Below are positions 21,260 through 35,382 of a stretch of DNA of 64,000 nucleotides, in pieces. The translations under genes were made by a program, and so were the position numbers. The DNA lies in assembly GCA_963807635.1 (NCBI GenBank), contig CAWEDJ010000071.1, positions 45,877-109,876 on the forward strand. Reading direction: 5' to 3'. This stretch comes from an uncultured cyanobacterium. GTDB taxonomy: Bacteria > Cyanobacteriota > Cyanobacteriia > Cyanobacteriales > Microcystaceae. The notes beneath the pieces were generated by a model. It saw nothing but the letters and a program-made list of their open reading frames with translations. It was not told the DNA's origin and did not search any database. Within the stretch, counting starts at the first letter, position 1, and each line of letters begins with the position of its first letter.

Positions 21260-22198
21260 ATGACTTTTTCTACCCTTTCCCGTCCTCTCTCGGCTCCTAT
21301 TCAATTAGCACAGACCCAAACCCTCATTCATGCAAATACATCCCTAGCAGATTACACCTCCTATCGAGTGGGGGGGCGGACCAATGGTATACCGCACCTC
21401 GGACTCGTAATGATCTGTATGCAATTTTTGATTGGTTCGAGAAACAAGATTTACCCCTAACTTTATTGGGGGCGGGTTCAAATCTTCTGATTAGTGATCA
21501 AGGTATCCCAGGGTTAGTTCTCAGCACTCGTTACCTTCGTCAGAGCAAATTAGACATAGAGACAGGAAGGATTACGGCATCAGCAGGGGAGCCGATCGCC
21601 AAAGTTGCCTGGCAAGCGGCAAAACAGGGATGGTTGGGTTTAGAGTGGGCAGTGGGAATTCCAGGCACAGTGGGGGGCGCAGTGGTAATGAATGCAGGAG
21701 CGCATAATCAATCAACCTCTGATTGTTTAATTAATGCTGTGGTGCTATCCCCCGATGGAACCTTAGAAACCTTGACGGCGGAAGAATTGGGTTTCAGTTA
21801 TCGCACCTCTAATCTACAGGGCGATCGCCGATTGGTGATTGAAGCAACTTTTCAGCTAAAAATGGGATTTGATCGTCAAGAAGTGATGGCCCAAACCAGT
21901 CATAATTTACATCACCGAAAAAACTCCCAACCCTACGACAAACCCAGTTGTGGCAGTGTTTTTCGCAACCCCACGCCCCAGTATGCCGCTCGGATTATTG
22001 AACAATTGGGATTAAAAGGTCATCGTATCGGTGGTGCAGAGGTTTCCCATCGTCACGCTAATTTTATCCTTAATGCGGGAAATGCCAAGGCCACAGGATA
22101 TTTTTCATTTGATCTGTCATGTTCAGGAACAGGTACAGGCCCATTGCTCCCTATTGTTGGAACCCGAAGTCAGAATTATGGGAGACTTTTCTCTTTAA
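21260..22198 (+). CDS. murB: UDP-N-acetylmuramate dehydrogenase; frameshifts near 21380 and 22093
   Basis: TSYRVGG, GAGSNLL, GIPGTVGGAVVMNAGA, SCGSVFRNP, HANFI and LEPEV; corrected stop at 22196-22198. Confidence 0.93.
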
Positions 22199-22297
22199 AA
22201 AAGTTTAAGTTTCTTCAGGACAAAAATTGCCCACAAAAAAAGCAGGAAGTCATAGTACTTTCTGCCTTAGATTCCAACCTATCATTCAGGTGATTAT

Positions 22298-23367: not shown

Positions 23368-24257
23368 CTAGTGACCAAATCGACAAACGACCCGAAAACC
23401 AATGTCATACAAGGAAGCATGGGGATCAAAGCGATCGCGTCTAGCGGAACGACATTTTTGGGGGCCTGACGTTCCAAGAACCTCCCCGAATCACCCGTTT
23501 ACTATCATCTCCGTTTATCTGCCAAATACTGCCATCAGTGGGCGCATTGGTATAATTACGATGCCAGGGATCGGCACACCATTCTCGAATATTACCGTGT
23601 AAATCAGACAGTCCAAAGGTATTTCCTACTGCAAAATGATTCACAGGTGTGGTTTCTCGGCGATCGCACCCCAAGAGGCCCCGCACCATAGGCTCCTTTA
23701 CTGCAAATTTTTGCTTGATATTCCCAATCTACCCCTGAATAGTTAGCGAGATCGGTGGTAAGGGTTTCCCCAAAGTGGAAAGGGGTTTGAGTATTTCCAC
23801 GACAGGCATATTCCCATTCCGCTTCACTGGGTAAGCCATATTTTTTATTGGTTAATTGGGACAATCTCGCACAAAACTCCATCGCTTCATACCAGGAAAC
23901 TTGCTCGACGGGACGATCAGCTCCCCGAAAATGAGCGCATTCTGGATCAAGAGATTCGGCAATTTTAGGGAGGCTTGCCACCACTGCCCACTGAGCCTGG
24001 GTAATCGGATATCGACTCATCCAAAAGTTGGGAATACTAACTCGATGTTGAGGCCCTTGGGAAGAGTGATAGCCTTCTTCGGTGTCAGGGGAACCCATCA
24101 GGAATTGCCCAGGGGGAATCGATACCATGTCCAAGAAAATTTCGTCTTTTAGTGGCTCTAAATAATGCTGGCTTGTTAGGCATTCCTTTTTAAGAAGTTT
24201 GCCCTCGGCATCAACCGTAATAGCTTCAAATTCAAAGAGAGAGGAATCTGTGATCAT
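23368..24257 (-). CDS. Formylglycine-generating enzyme (SUMF1/FGE-sulfatase) family protein; frameshifted
   Basis: FLMGSP, PVEQVSW, LPSEAEWEYACR, GL.DLHGN..EWC.D, RGGSW and GFRVV. Confidence 0.88.
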
Positions 24258-26510: not shown

Positions 26511-27900
26511 GTGACAACAGCAAAAAAAACGTGGAGCGATCGCTTTGAAGGGTCATTGCACCCCGCCATTGTGCTTTTTAATGCCAGTATCGGCTTTGAT
26601 ATTGAACTGATCGAGTATGACTTAAGCGGATCAGTCGCCCACGCCAAAATGTTAGGCCATACGGGGATTATTTCACCCACAGAGGCCGATCAATTGGTCG
26701 AAGGATTAGAAACCATCCGCCAGGAATATCGGGACGGTAAATTCACCCCAGGCATTGATCAAGAAGATGTGCATTTTGCAGTAGAACGACGACTCACGGA
26801 ATTAGTAGGGGATGTGGGCAAAAAACTCCATACAGCCCGTTCTCGTAATGATCAGGTCGGAACCGATGTTCGGCTTTATCTCCGCGCAGAAATAGACCAG
26901 ATTCGGGATTATCTTCGAGATTTTCAACGGGTTCTGGTGACGATCGCCGATAAAAATGTCGAAACCCTGATCCCAGGCTATACCCATCTCCAACGCGCCC
27001 AACCCGTTAGCCTCGCCCATCACTTTTTGGCGTATTTTCAGATGGCACAGCGAGATTGGCAACGCCTCGGAGAAATTCGCGCCCGTACTAATATTTCTCC
27101 CCTCGGATCGGGAGCCTTAGCAGGAACCACCTTTCCCATTGATCGCCATTATAGTGCTAATTTACTCGGTTTTGAAGGGGTTTATGCCAATAGCTTAGAT
27201 GGAGTCAGCGATCGCGACTTTGCCATTGAATTTCTCAATGCGGCGAGCCTAATCATGGTACATCTCAGCCGTCTGAGTGAAGAAATGATTCTCTGGGCTT
27301 CCCAGGAATTTAGCTTTATTAGCCTAACCGATAGCTGTGCAACGGGTTCTAGCATCATGCCCCAAAAGAAAAATCCTGATGTTCCCGAACTGATTCGCGG
27401 TAAAGCAGGACGAGTCATTCGGCCATCTTCAGGGAATGTTGGTTTTGATGAAGGGTTTACCCTTGGCCTATAACAAAGACCTCCAGGAAGATAAAGAAGC
27501 TCTCTTTGATGCGGTTAAAACTGTTAAAGTTTCCCTCGAAGCCATGACGGTTTTACTAGAAGAAGGGATTATTTTCCGTCAAGAAAGACTGGCAGAAGCG
27601 GTTTCTGAAGATTTTTCTAATGCCACCGATGTGGCAGATTATTTAGCAGCTAAGGGTGTGCCTTTCCGAGAAGCCTACAATTTAGTCGGAAAAGTGGTCA
27701 AAAGTAGTCTTGCGATCGGGAAATTACTCAAGGATCTCAGCCTAGAGGAGTGGAAAGCCTTACATCCTGCCTTTGAAAGCGATATTTATGATGCGATCGC
27801 TCCTCGACAGGTGGTTGCCGCCCGCAATAGCTATGGTGGCACAGGATTTGAGCAAGTCCGACTAGCCCTTGCATCAGCCAAAGCAGAAATTGGGCAATAG
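26511..27900 (+). CDS. argH: Argininosuccinate lyase; frameshift near 27418
   Basis: [34 protein letters not shown] and [14 protein letters not shown]. Confidence 0.96.
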
Positions 27901-27937: not shown

Positions 27938-28234
27938 CTAAGGATTAGAAAGGAATAACTTCGCTGTAATGCCCAAAAGCGCACCAGCAACAATGACAAT
28001 CAGTGACCAGAGTTGATTTTTCTGGGTTCCGCCCAATTCTCTGACTTGACCTTCTAGCCCCGTCAATTTGGTTTCGACGGTTGCCAATTTGATGTTAGTT
28101 TGGTTGATTTCTTGGGTAAGTTTATCCAACTTCTCATCCGTCTTTTCAAAACGAGCATCTAATTTATCAAAACGCTCATTTATTGTATTTAGGATTTCCC
28201 TTAAGTCAGTCTCAACGGTCACTGGGCTTGGCAT
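27938..28234 (-). CDS. Small coiled-coil protein with a C-terminal TM helix
   Basis: Heptad-rich RFDKLDARFEKTDEKLDKL; hydrophobic end LWSLIVIVAGALLGI. Confidence 0.7.
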   Translation of the reverse strand: MPSPVTVETDLREILNTINERFDKLDARFEKTDEKLDKLTQEINQTNIKLATVETKLTGLEGQVRELGGTQKNQLWSLIVIVAGALLGITAKLFLSNP

Positions 28235-28348: not shown

Positions 28349-28804
28349 ATGCAACAAATTTGGCGATACCTCAAAACTTTTTTAAAAGTTGCCTTCCGTC
28401 ACCCTGTCACGGGGGTCACAATTGTCCCTATTTTGCCCGATGGACGCATCGCTCTAATCCAACGACGAGACTCTGGACAATGGGGTTTACCTGGCGGATT
28501 AGTCGATTACGGAGAAGATATTCCGACGACGGTAAGAAGGGAACTCACGGAAGAAACGGGACTAAATTTACTCAAAATTAGGCGTTTAGTAGGCGTTTAT
28601 TCCCATCCCGATCGCGATCCACGAATGCACTCCATCACCGTCTTAGTAGAAGCCGAAGTTGCAGGGAATTTAGCCACAAACGATACCCTAGAAGTATTAG
28701 ATGTCAAAGCTTTTACTTTGGAAGAATTACCCCTGGGCGATTTGAGCCATGATCACGATCGCCACCTGAATGATTTTTTACAAGGGTTAACGATTATTGC
28801 CTAA
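28349..28804 (+). CDS. NUDIX hydrolase
   Basis: Nudix box GGLVDYGEDIPTTVRRELTEETG. Confidence 0.92.
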   Translation: MQQIWRYLKTFLKVAFRHPVTGVTIVPILPDGRIALIQRRDSGQWGLPGGLVDYGEDIPTTVRRELTEETGLNLLKIRRLVGVYSHPDRDPRMHSITVLVEAEVAGNLATNDTLEVLDVKAFTLEELPLGDLSHDHDRHLNDFLQGLTIIA

Positions 28805-28826
28805 ATAATCTGATTTTTACTGTAAA

Positions 28827-28872
28827 ATAGAAATCTGTCAAATTTGATAGATTTCTATCTTTAAGATATAAT
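28827..28872 (+). promoter_or_regulatory. Sigma70-type promoter overlapped by a 32-bp palindrome
   Basis: TTGATA (28844-28849), 17 bp, TATAAT (28867-28872); palindrome ATAGAAATCTGTCAAA|TTTGATAGATTTCTAT at 28827-28858 with one mismatch. Confidence 0.7.
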
Positions 28873-28978
28873 CATTTTCAGAATTTCAGACTAAAATCAT
28901 TGTTTGTGATTATTGTCAATTTTTGCAACAAAGGACTATACCCCCTCACAACTAAATTGGATTTAAATTGAAATAATT

Positions 28979-29311
28979 ATGAAGAAATCACCAGTTAATC
29001 CACGCTTAACATTTGATTATGTGAAAAGTAGTCTATTTCGCACAATTCATGCTGATGGCGTAGTAGGAAGTATTACTCCAGCATCTAACATTTATATTGC
29101 TTTTTTTAATGAACGTTTTGCAATTCCCCAACAATTAGTATTTGAGATTCAACCTGATGGAGAAATCGGAGATGAAATTTTAGAATCTCGACGTTCCAGA
29201 GATTCGGTACTAAGAGAAATGGAGGTAGGAGTGACCATGAGTATTGATGCCGCAGAGTTTCTTCTGGAATCCTTACAAGAAATTATTAAGGAAGCAAAAG
29301 AACAAATGTAA
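28979..29311 (+). CDS. Hypothetical protein, DUF3467-like (cassette gene 1)
   Basis: FRTIHADGVVGSITP..NIYIAFFNER and REMEVGVTMS..AA..L..SL pattern; family call made by eye. Confidence 0.6.
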   Translation: MKKSPVNPRLTFDYVKSSLFRTIHADGVVGSITPASNIYIAFFNERFAIPQQLVFEIQPDGEIGDEILESRRSRDSVLREMEVGVTMSIDAAEFLLESLQEIIKEAKEQM

Positions 29312-29376
29312 GGAGACTAACATTTGTTTAAATTGTTAATCATCAACTTTAAAGATTCAACTAAGACAAAGCAATT

Positions 29377-29874
29377 ATGGCAACCACTTATCATAAGCCC
29401 AAAATTGAGAGTGTTTCGTCTGGGCGAATATATCGCACAAGATCTTTTCACGCAAGTAAGTATAGTCATTTCACTATTTCTAATAATATTGATTCTTTAT
29501 GGAAAATTCAACCCGCGTTAGATAATTTAGAAAAACTCTCCCTCTTGCCAAACAATTGGGACTCTTATGGTGCTGAATGTCCATCAACATTGGCCGTGGA
29601 GAATGCTCGTTCGTTTTTGTTTAAGTTGCCATCTTATTTTTCTTATTTATCGCCCCACGAAATTAATCCTTTTACAATAGTTCCAGTTTGTGATGGAGGG
29701 ATTCAAATAGAATGGCGTAATAAATATGCAGAAATTGAATTAGAAGTCGAATCTGATGGTAAATTTTCCTACTTACTTATTGATAAATCTCAAAAAGAAA
29801 GAGTTTTTCTAGAGAAACATGGAGTAGTTCCTTCAGATATAATTAAATTACTTGAAAAAGTATTTTATCATTGA
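29377..29874 (+). CDS. Hypothetical protein with a WDSYGA...DGGIQIEW motif (cassette gene 2; putative antitoxin)
   Basis: LSLLPNNWDSYGAECPS..AVENARSFL...VPVCDGGIQIEW...ELEVESDG, with a polar N-terminal extension of about 45 aa. Confidence 0.6.
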   Translation: MATTYHKPKIESVSSGRIYRTRSFHASKYSHFTISNNIDSLWKIQPALDNLEKLSLLPNNWDSYGAECPSTLAVENARSFLFKLPSYFSYLSPHEINPFTIVPVCDGGIQIEWRNKYAEIELEVESDGKFSYLLIDKSQKERVFLEKHGVVPSDIIKLLEKVFYH

Positions 29875-29903
29875 TTTTAAGTATCTTTTAGCTTCAATAT
29901 TAA

Positions 29904-30287
29904 ATGTTAGAAAGAATTTTAGACGAAGATGAGCTTTATCGGAGGCTACCTCTTATTTCTTTAAATAGTGACGGTACTGTTAATTCTGCGGCCTTTAAGC
30001 TTAGGGGTAAGCCAGATCCTAATATTTCCGTAGATCTCGCTAGATTGACAACTCCTCAAGAGAGTTTAAATAGAGTAGTAAATCCTAATAATTTTAGATT
30101 AGGAGCATTCCTTGCCAATACTCCACGAAATCTTGGATTGACAGTAATTCATGATCCTCTTAATGATAATTATGCTCATTCGCTCATTCAAGATAATGAA
30201 AACACACAAAATAGTAAAGTTATATGTCGTCTTCTTGCGGAATCTACCAAAGTTATTTTTCCTCCCGATGAGGTGATCGCAGATTAA
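29904..30287 (+). CDS. Small putative ADP-ribosyltransferase-fold protein (cassette gene 3; putative toxin)
   Basis: ELYRR (strand-1 Arg), NSAAF, ISVD (strand-2 Ser) and terminal NYAHSLI, spaced as in minimal ART/RES-like folds. Confidence 0.5.
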   Translation: MLERILDEDELYRRLPLISLNSDGTVNSAAFKLRGKPDPNISVDLARLTTPQESLNRVVNPNNFRLGAFLANTPRNLGLTVIHDPLNDNYAHSLIQDNENTQNSKVICRLLAESTKVIFPPDEVIAD

Positions 30288-30497
30288 ATGAAGTTTAGGT
30301 TACTCAGAATATTTTAATGGGAGTAAGTCTTGCTAATCTAAAGGATTTTCTTGAGAATATCTACAATATTTTCGTTATAAATTGGTCTTAAAATCCAGCT
30401 TAAGTAATAATTATAATCTGAGAAAAATTAACATTAATATCCTGATTCGGTGCATCTATTTTTGAACTAATTTTTTCCGTAATTCGGTTTTAATACC

Positions 30498-34321: not shown

Positions 34322-35382
34322 ATGAAAAATCGACAAAAATTCATGTTAGATTATTGTCTTAAAGTTCCCGTGGTTGGCTTTTTTCTGCTTAACTTAAATG
34401 CTTGCGACTGGATTAGTCAGCGATTTTTCCCCTCTACCCAATTTACAGCTCGCAACTTGGGAGTAATTGTCAATACGGCTGATCCTCTGAGTGTGCAAAT
34501 TGCGGAATATTATCAACGACAACGGAAAATTCCTCAGCAAAATATTATTAAAATTTCCTTTCCTGCTAATCGTTCTGAACTTTCGTCGGAAGAATTTTTA
34601 GCCTTACAAAGGAAGGTTAAAGCCCAAACACCGAGCCAAGTGGAAGGTTATGCTCTTACCTGGGCTGCCCCCTACCGAGTCGGTTGTATGTCGATTACCA
34701 GTGCCTTTGCCTTTGGCTATGACCAGTCTTATTGTGCCAATGGCTGTCAGCCGACTGCCGTGAATCCCTATTTCAATCAGGAAACGATTCATCCCTATCA
34801 AGATTTTAAAATGCGTCCGACTATGATGATCGCCGCGACGAATTTTACTGAAGCGAAGGGATTAATCGATCGCGGGGTGGCTTCGGATGCGACCTATCCC
34901 CCAGGACGGCCTATCTAATGGATACCAGTGATAAGGCTCGTAATGTGCGATCGCAGTTTTATCCTGCTGTGATCAATTATCTGGGTTCTCGTTTGCGGAT
35001 TGTGACTCCTAAAAGTGATGCCCTGGAAAATAAGACTGATGTGATGTTTTATATTACGGGACGCGCCCAGGTTAACAAAATTAAAACCAATCAATTCAGA
35101 CCAGGTGCGATCGCCGATCACCTCACTTCCCTGGGCGGACAACTCACCGATAGCTCCCAAATGAGTAGCCTACGTTGGCTAGAAGCAGGAGTAACGGGTA
35201 GTTATGGGGCAGTAGTCGAACCCTGCAACTTTTTGCAAAAATTTCCCCATCCAGGCGTAGTCATCCAATCCTATCTCAATGGAGCAACGCTATTAGAAAG
35301 TTATTGGCGAAGTGTGGCGTGGCCAGGCCAGGGCGTATTTATTGGAGAACCCCTAGCGCGTCCCTATGGTCAAAAATCTTAA
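34322..35382 (+). CDS. TIGR03790 family protein; frameshift near 34905
   Basis: V.VN..DP.S.QIAEYY...R.IP, PGAIADHLTS.GG, GSYGAVVEPCN and GEPLARPY. Confidence 0.82.

Follow-up and report, generated by a model that had tools for sequence, protein, structure and literature searches.

A three-gene cyanobacterial cassette with an ART-fold putative toxin, a tailed putative antitoxin and an exchangeable upstream gene

Introduction

Toxin-antitoxin-chaperone (TAC) systems are the closest described relatives in design of the locus reported here. In the available text of two reports, the TAC systems CmdTAC, HigBAC and MqsRAC are described as combining a SecB-like chaperone with a C-terminal tag, and the third components of the known systems protect the antitoxin (PMC11618068; 10.1101/2024.02.24.581848). 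The same text describes the antitoxin CmdA as having helices at its N-terminus and, at its C-terminus, an unstructured ChAD with a terminal ClpXP degron (PMC11618068; 10.1101/2024.02.24.581848). A second point of comparison is the PADLOC candidate PDC-M32, which belongs to a set predicted on the grounds that its members lie embedded within defence systems (Payne et al., bioRxiv 10.1101/2024.01.29.577857); M32 is unnamed in the accessible main text of that preprint, and its supplementary tables may annotate it. PDC-M32 is otherwise named, in the portion of PMC12429752 available, for PADLOC matches in a prophage.

In the current study, we characterized a three-gene cassette within a 64-kb window (the whole stretch of DNA analysed, 64,000 nt) from an uncultured cyanobacterium and compared it with these systems.

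Results

The cassette lies between a NUDIX gene (PF00293) on one side and an AAA_33/APH-like gene (APH-AAA) on the other, and its genes are spaced by 65 bp (genes 1-2) and 29 bp (genes 2-3) (Table 1). Open reading frames and Pfam searches bore out the first-pass annotation's description of three co-oriented genes of 110, 165 and 127 aa between these flanks, and the motifs that it quoted for genes 2 and 3, among them the WDSY motif after which we name the gene 2 domain, are present in the translations.

Table 1. Features of the cassette, in window coordinates
Feature	Coordinates	Strand	Description
Accessory insert	28805..30477	.	Takes the place of a 48-bp spacer at the empty site (G218, G408)
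Palindrome	28827..28858	.	16-bp arms, 1 mismatch; candidate operator or hairpin
Sigma-70-like promoter match	28844..28872	+	11/12 consensus bases, best of 13 sites; -35 box within palindrome
Gene 1	28979..29311	+	110 aa; beta-meander and C-terminal helix; putative controller of antitoxin stability
Gene 2 ORF	29377-29874	+	165 aa; tail and WDSY domain
Gene 2 N-terminal tail	29377..29502	+	42 aa, S/T-rich (29%), scattered aromatics (14%); putative addiction/degron element
Gene 2 WDSY domain	29503..29874	+	PDC-M32A C-terminal match, alignment, complex model; putative antitoxin
Gene 3	29904..30287	+	127 aa; minimal ART-fold protein with R13/R14, S42, H92; putative toxin
Degenerate copy of dispersed intergenic repeat	30283..30392	.	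Inside insert

The block had been called AT-rich, and its GC content is indeed low, 0.33 against 0.41 for the genome, which places it at the 4th percentile of genome tiles of equal size; GC3 of the cassette genes is 0.21-0.23 vs. 0.40 and 0.33 in the flanks. The HIP1 octamer had also been reported in both flanking genes and missing between them. The APH-AAA gene does hold three perfect copies, whereas the NUDIX gene holds none, only two CGATCG cores. Since 538 of 2708 tiles of block size across the genome are free of HIP1, we dropped its absence as a strong sign of foreign DNA. A foreign origin is better supported by the empty site in congeners: in two of the five (G218, G408) the flanking genes stand 68 bp apart. 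The NUDIX and APH-AAA genes occupy separate locations in the other three, and DNA resembling the three cassette genes was absent from all five. No target-site repeat was seen at the insert. The cassette was covered in all four environmental sequencing runs, with one 2091-nt contig bridging 28456-30529, and contigs from two of the four runs skip it, joining 28804 to 30489 or 30497. The three-gene cassette is a polymorphic accessory insert of ~1.7 kb.

The block was also credited with a palindrome and a promoter of its own. The palindrome stood out as one of only two of such kind in the 4.03-Mb genome, and RNA of 28805-28880 is predicted to form a hairpin of -20.7 kcal/mol; the promoter is a consensus match only, because the 13 sites of the sigma-70 scan do not exceed the 9.4 +/- 3.5 found in shuffles. 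The dispersed repeat has 73-77% matches on three other contigs of the genome and in two congeners, and its other copies bear a GGGCG...CGCCCC hairpin that we take to be REP-like. Housekeeping genes surround the cassette in the window, with no neighboring defence genes there. A 98-aa coiled-coil protein with a C-terminal hydrophobic helix is encoded at 27938-28234 (- strand) and has a weak, below-cut-off match to XhlA. Several genes appear split or frameshifted (26511-27473 and 27436-27900; 23441-24257; 34322-35382; 21466-22293); these are presumably argH-like, formylglycine-enzyme-like, TIGR03790-like and murB-like, and could be products of assembly errors or decay.

Of 194 candidates, 182 proved to be relatives of gene 3, and a gene 3 model built from 118 sequences reached a pLDDT of 89.6. 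Foldseek returned no match to this model at E<=0.001. In a wide fold search, nearly all of the 50 matches listed were ART-superfamily proteins, led by KptA/Tpt1 (Z 7.5, 92 aligned, rmsd 3.5) and including HopF2 (Z 7.0), Tse2 (Z 5.4), DarT (Z 4.7) and RES toxins (Z 3.0-4.7). The scores are moderate, the best lying below the tool's comfort mark of 8, but the ART matches are consistent, so we assign gene 3 with good confidence a predicted split beta-sheet ART-like fold, in line with the first-pass annotation. Its conserved residues make up an R-S-H triad: strand 1 carries R13/R14, strand 2 carries S42, and H92 is found on a late strand. An R-S-H triad is also present in Tse2, whose inhibitor covers the cleft. 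The strand-2 serine motif proposed earlier exists as S42 of ISVD; S28 of SAAF, by contrast, sits in a short helix of the model. Conservation of S42 in L011-L112 is circular, because the retrieval pattern contained it; an Arg on strand 1 as well as the Ser and His persist in L127, L128, L169, L203 and L204, distant members found via gene 1 or gene 2. Because the top fold matches include Tpt1/KptA phosphotransferases as well as NADases, ADP-ribosylation is not the sole possible chemistry. On this modelled fold, gene 3 probably encodes an NAD-using toxin whose target could be RNA, DNA, protein or plain NAD cleavage, and it may possibly bring new ART chemistry. A scan of IMG/VR found no gene 3 relatives.

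Gene 2 was assigned to no family by Pfam, PDB sequence search or Atlas, and no PDB chain matched the gene 2 or gene 3 families by sequence at a meaningful E-value. In the alignment, the WDSY domain conserves L57, W61, Y64, P103, G107, G108 and W113. When gene 2 was modelled as the partner of gene 3 in a job that also held two copies of gene 1, the complex scored 0.83, vs. 0.01 for the best of three controls. Of 157 solved complexes, 116 score this high, as do 2 of 215 mismatched pairs; the benchmark is rough here because user-made alignments and more than two chains went into the job. Runs had at least 38% of contacts in common, and partner pLDDT was at least 70. R14 and S42 of gene 3 are part of the modelled interface, as are residues 61-64 of gene 2. 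A gene 3 relative lies directly behind the WDSY domain in 96 of 102 loci, which is linkage from gene 3's side, since most loci were retrieved by gene 3. Taken together, the complex model and the gene linkage led us to read gene 2 as the partner of gene 3, as the earlier annotation had done; its WDSY domain is predicted to bind gene 3 and cover the catalytic cleft. Genes 2 and 3 probably constitute a toxin-antitoxin core.

The WDSY domain also occurs in other settings. In four loci without a third gene it is fused behind VapB, UPF0175 or DUF433 domains; gene 2 itself shows no DNA-binding domain, whereas some pair-only loci fuse known antitoxin domains to it. The only longer gene 2 relatives among 7999 scored candidates were three proteins (P0275-P0277) with the domain at the C-terminus of type I HsdS, and these fusions suggest a toxin guarding a restriction enzyme. 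A divergent cyanobacterial version with an acidic motif in place of the WDSY loop was found in L009, L177 and L178, with an ART-like gene behind it in L009 and L178. On an Acetobacter plasmid (L202:3920-5225), a protein with two tandem WDSY-like domains is followed by a gene annotated as an SspB adaptor; no ART gene was detected there. On a Hymenobacter plasmid (L205:1947-4740), a DUF4209 protein, a long-tailed WDSY protein and an ART-like gene, whose ORF is missing from the record's gene table, are followed by a HipA-type pair.

The first-pass annotation had suggested a conserved triplet. Genes 2 and 3 are indeed linked, whereas gene 1 can be exchanged for other upstream partners, and at many loci no such partner is present. 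Across the 102 loci in which the WDSY domain start is present, the upstream slot is occupied by at least five different families or by nothing: TIGR04255 (29 loci), SDH-type ClpP-like protease (PF01972; 8 loci, all with tails of 58-90 aa), DUF6941 (6), two unnamed 240-aa families (6 and 4), DUF3467-like proteins (5, labelled by eye) and the gene 1 family (5, the studied locus counted), with a fused domain in 4, nothing recognizable in 20 and a contig end in 15. The slot's cyanobacterial DUF3467-like proteins had no Pfam match at E<=0.001. Profile comparisons (probability <=3.6%) gave no firm link between these proteins and gene 1, and no support for kinship between TIGR04255 and the two 240-aa families.

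The length of the gene 2 tail tracks the presence of a third gene. Tails of at least 35 aa were found in 34 of 37 clusters with a third gene vs. 5 of 18 without, a count that ignores kinship, and the medians in the same clusters were 61 and 18 aa. Clusters were drawn at 70% identity, with contig ends and fusions set aside, and tail starts were taken by rule as the longest ATG, which tends to inflate tail length in the pair-only group. Sister contrasts in a quick gene 3 tree (124 columns) set loci without a third gene, L007 (9-aa tail), L018 (9 aa) and L019 (23 aa), against relatives with one: L008 (83 aa), L005/L014/L015 (61-75 aa) and L033 (68 aa, on a long branch), respectively. Ser/Thr content is 22% in the tails vs. 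11% in the WDSY domain; no common motif was seen by eye among the tails, which are alike in composition. Three of the four environmental runs have an in-frame 9-bp insertion in the tail, at 29386. Because tail length tracks third-gene presence in these sequences, we infer that the antitoxin comes to depend on the upstream protein through its tail.

The gene 1 model (pLDDT 95.4) is a beta-meander with a single helix at its C-terminus. Among the best 50 of 176 fold matches with Z>=2, the top six were COMM domains (Z 5.4-4.7, 59-61 residues aligned, rmsd 2.9-3.9), the bacterial COMM domain 9q6a matching at Z 5.0, and Pur-alpha/PC4 came next (Z 4.1); neither SecB nor SspB was among these 50. Z values in this range may reflect a common arrangement only. 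SecB is likewise absent from the six Pfam families matched by 131 gene 1 relatives (E<=0.01), and gene 1 itself had no SecB match at E<=1 in Pfam or NCBIfam. The earlier suggestion of a non-SecB protein is supported in that the best fold matches of gene 1 are COMM/PC4-like. As for its description as DUF3467-like, gene 1 had no match to DUF3467 (PF11950) at E<=1. Weak matches to that family occur in 7 of 131 gene 1 family members (best E 0.0011), and an Atlas cluster with 43% DUF3467 members scored 0.84 for gene 1, which is a lead only; by sequence, DUF3467 would be a distant relative at most. The family alignment shows conserved K16, R21 and R46 and an invariant R79. In the complex control in which gene 3 was replaced, genes 1 and 2 scored 0.01, with almost nil tail alignment depth, and the confident modelled interface lists no gene 1 residue, which counts neither for nor against binding of gene 1 to gene 2. 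A fusion of the two genes was also sought, and the WDSY profile matched none of the stored gene 1 relatives.

The gene 1 family is large (1480 clusters at 50% identity, E<=0.001). It was not found in 400 other genomes of the same phylum and was matched in 44 of 787 genomes from four other phylum-level samples; of the 44 loci returned, one weak match was dropped, leaving 43. In 18 of these, by labels given largely by eye, the gene lies upstream of an N-extended protein, and 17 of the 18 have a small toxin-like gene next. The gene 1-WDSY-ART order occurs in L127, L128 and L169 (WDSY E<=7e-8; ART weak by profile, motif present), with divergent versions in L157 and L158, and L170 has genes 1 and 2 only. 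In twelve of the 43 loci the gene stands ahead of a different pair, the first protein of which is extended at its N-terminus. The partners are PemK by Pfam (2), an aspartyl protease with DUF5678 (1), DUF7689 (1), unknown (2) and, by eye, HicB/HicA-like in six, with one weak HicA match (E 0.04). Modularity is thus seen on both sides: third genes change ahead of the pair, and pairs change behind gene 1. The family is not specific to toxin-antitoxin loci, because 25 of the 43 loci are solo genes in housekeeping settings. Solo copies occur at conserved housekeeping positions (L139-L145, L129-L130, L134-L136, L148-L151), for example directly ahead of a gene that we take to be miaB-like, and possibly represent the ancestral role of the family. 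The gene 1 tree, from which L156 was omitted as a weak match, has poor resolution and does not trace the toxin-antitoxin-linked copies to one origin. A 112-aa siphovirus protein (BFVD A0A8S5TBT1) matched the gene 1 model over its full length (E 1.8e-4, TM 0.70) and is, on structural likeness, a putative phage-borne copy or mimic.

The earlier suggestion of defence-island neighborhoods held for 4 of 15 widened loci, where type I RM, DUF262, LeoABC and a TIR effector adjoin the cassette, and not for the remainder or for the studied window. Near the end of the record of Ralstonia phage YO139_2 (Peduoviridae, P2-like; L203:368-2058) lie TIGR04255, WDSY (48-aa tail) and ART-like genes. The PDC-M32 match described below, this P2-like phage triplet and the HsdS fusions are indirect pointers to a defence role, and the odds lean slightly toward the cassette having an anti-phage role.

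Discussion

The reading that we favor, to which we give an even chance, is that the cassette was acquired horizontally and is a toxin-antitoxin module of three parts whose order and polarity run opposite to those of a TAC system. The NAD-using ART-fold toxin encoded by gene 3 would be held by the WDSY domain of gene 2, which would plug the catalytic cleft. The unstructured tail of gene 2 would leave the antitoxin unstable or insoluble unless an upstream protein handles the tail, and gene 1, probably as an oligomer, would bind and shield it. A phage protein or a stress that diverts gene 1 would then expose the tail, the antitoxin would be cleared, and the toxin would halt the infected cell. The shielding and trigger steps are drawn from the analogy with CmdTAC and HigBAC. 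That gene 1 acts through the gene 2 tail is fairly probable; whether it protects rather than degrades is evenly balanced.

A different role for gene 1, which would leave the toxin-antitoxin pair chaperone-free, is that of a PC4/Pur-like nucleic-acid binder, acting either as an operon repressor at the palindrome or as a sensor of single-stranded nucleic acid from phage. Nucleic-acid binding is frequent among PC4-like folds, and Pur-alpha, PC4, MRP and Whirly are among the gene 1 fold matches (Z 4.1-2.8). The PC4-like fold together with the rare palindrome, which overlaps the -35 box, keeps such a role in play; the conserved basic residues K16, R21, R46 and R79 fit it, as does a gene 2 that shows no DNA-binding domain when some pair-only loci fuse known antitoxin domains. 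We nevertheless consider it unlikely, since COMM outscores PC4 in the fold search, and it leaves unexplained both the tracking of tail and third gene and the protease and other families in the same slot. Those proteases could instead point to gene 1 as a proteolysis adaptor that, on a signal, binds the tail and delivers the antitoxin for destruction, so activating the toxin. A ClpP-like protease in the slot at eight loci, always with long tails, fits degradation better than protection and is why an activating role is considered, and the tandem WDSY protein ahead of an annotated SspB adaptor on the Acetobacter plasmid is of the same kind. Such an adaptor is nonetheless improbable. SspB was not among the best 50 of 176 fold matches of gene 1. 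Known TAC third components, as far as the accessible text of the reports describes them, protect the antitoxin (PMC11618068; 10.1101/2024.02.24.581848).

It is also conceivable that genes 2 and 3 are an ordinary selfish or stress type II pair, possibly with an NADase or phosphotransferase toxin, and that gene 1 is a passenger in a cassette with no anti-phage role. The pair stands alone at 20 loci, most neighborhoods consist of housekeeping genes, solo gene 1 copies are common, and PDCs are predicted candidates only. On the other side, the gene 1-WDSY-ART order recurs in three clear and two divergent loci from other phyla, and tail length tracks the third gene even in sister pairs, so we hold this explanation to be as improbable as the adaptor.

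The reversed module may belong to something broader. It is possible, with the balance somewhat against it, that there is an undescribed, widespread class of reversed TACs in which interchangeable upstream proteins read S/T-rich N-terminal tails as plug-in phage sensors, the readers being the COMM/PC4-like gene 1 family, TIGR04255, DUF6941, DUF3467-like proteins, the ClpP-like protease and the two 240-aa families. If so, the gene 1 family would be a non-SecB toxin-antitoxin chaperone for ART, PemK, HicA-like and protease toxins, antitoxins of several folds would have gained a tail, and gene 3 would be the founding member of a class of defence ARTs with an R-S-H triad. The cassette hints at a novel means by which bacteria could arm a self-destruct defence. 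A mirror image of TAC with swappable third components would, if true, make chaperone addiction a general, repeatedly invented wiring from sensor to toxin; it would also give testable functions to TIGR04255, DUF6941 and DUF3467-like proteins and a mechanism to the candidate PDC-M32. Sister pairs with and without the tail and third gene are natural material for a direct test.

Compared with described systems, the gene 2-3 core is already catalogued, being a distant relative of the candidate PDC-M32. The match of gene 2 lies in the C-terminal part of PDC-M32A (~90 positions, about 257-347; E 1.9e-8), and gene 3 matches PDC-M32B (E 1.7e-4), as do 105 of 118 gene 3 homologues at E<=0.01; genes matching M32A and M32B are adjacent and in the same order as genes 2 and 3. 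The earlier statement that no characterised system of this composition is known needs the qualification that the core pair is already listed as a candidate; the PADLOC PD-T4-9 models had no match in the cassette genes. PDC-M32A models span 375-384 positions vs. the 165 aa of gene 2, and their long N-terminal part is replaced in the cassette by a 42-aa tail and a separate gene. One 377-aa M32A example has no third gene, and the ~260 residues that precede its WDSY domain match none of the third-gene profiles; PDC-M32A as a fusion of third gene and antitoxin was unsupported in that example.

Among ART-fold proteins, Tse2-Tsi2 of Pseudomonas aeruginosa (PDB 5ako), KptA/Tpt1, HopF2, DarT and RES toxins have an ART-like fold akin to that modelled for gene 3, but share only 7-14% identity with it, and no secretion context was seen at the cassette. 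COMMD and prokaryotic COMMD-like proteins, in the available part of PMC13392464, have the beta-meander and C-terminal helix in common with the gene 1 model; unlike gene 1, COMMD proteins have a helical N-terminal domain, and only ~60 of 110 residues align. The words "toxin" and "phage" are absent from the main text of that source. No description of the cassette architecture was found in literature on TIGR04255, DUF3467, DUF6941, SDH protease and TAC or non-SecB chaperones, in which few subscription papers were covered, or in the available part of PMC11980606.

CmdTAC, the system detected as PD-T4-9, is likewise built from three small genes: its toxin has an ART fold, its antitoxin contains an unstructured segment with aromatic residues, and a third protein completes the set. 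It differs in several respects. As far as the accessible text describes it, the triad of CmdT is H-Y-[E,D,Q] (PMC11618068), in contrast to R-S-H in gene 3; CmdT is an mRNA ART of the diphtheria-toxin class. The unstructured ChAD of CmdA is C-terminal, whereas gene 2 has an N-terminal tail and a folded domain that runs to its C-terminus; CmdC is SecB-like, whereas gene 1 lacks a SecB family match; and the gene order is reversed. The cassette probably works like a TAC system while not being a member of the TAC family, and its novelty lies in the architecture, a swappable upstream slot joined to a tail, rather than in the catalogued core pair.
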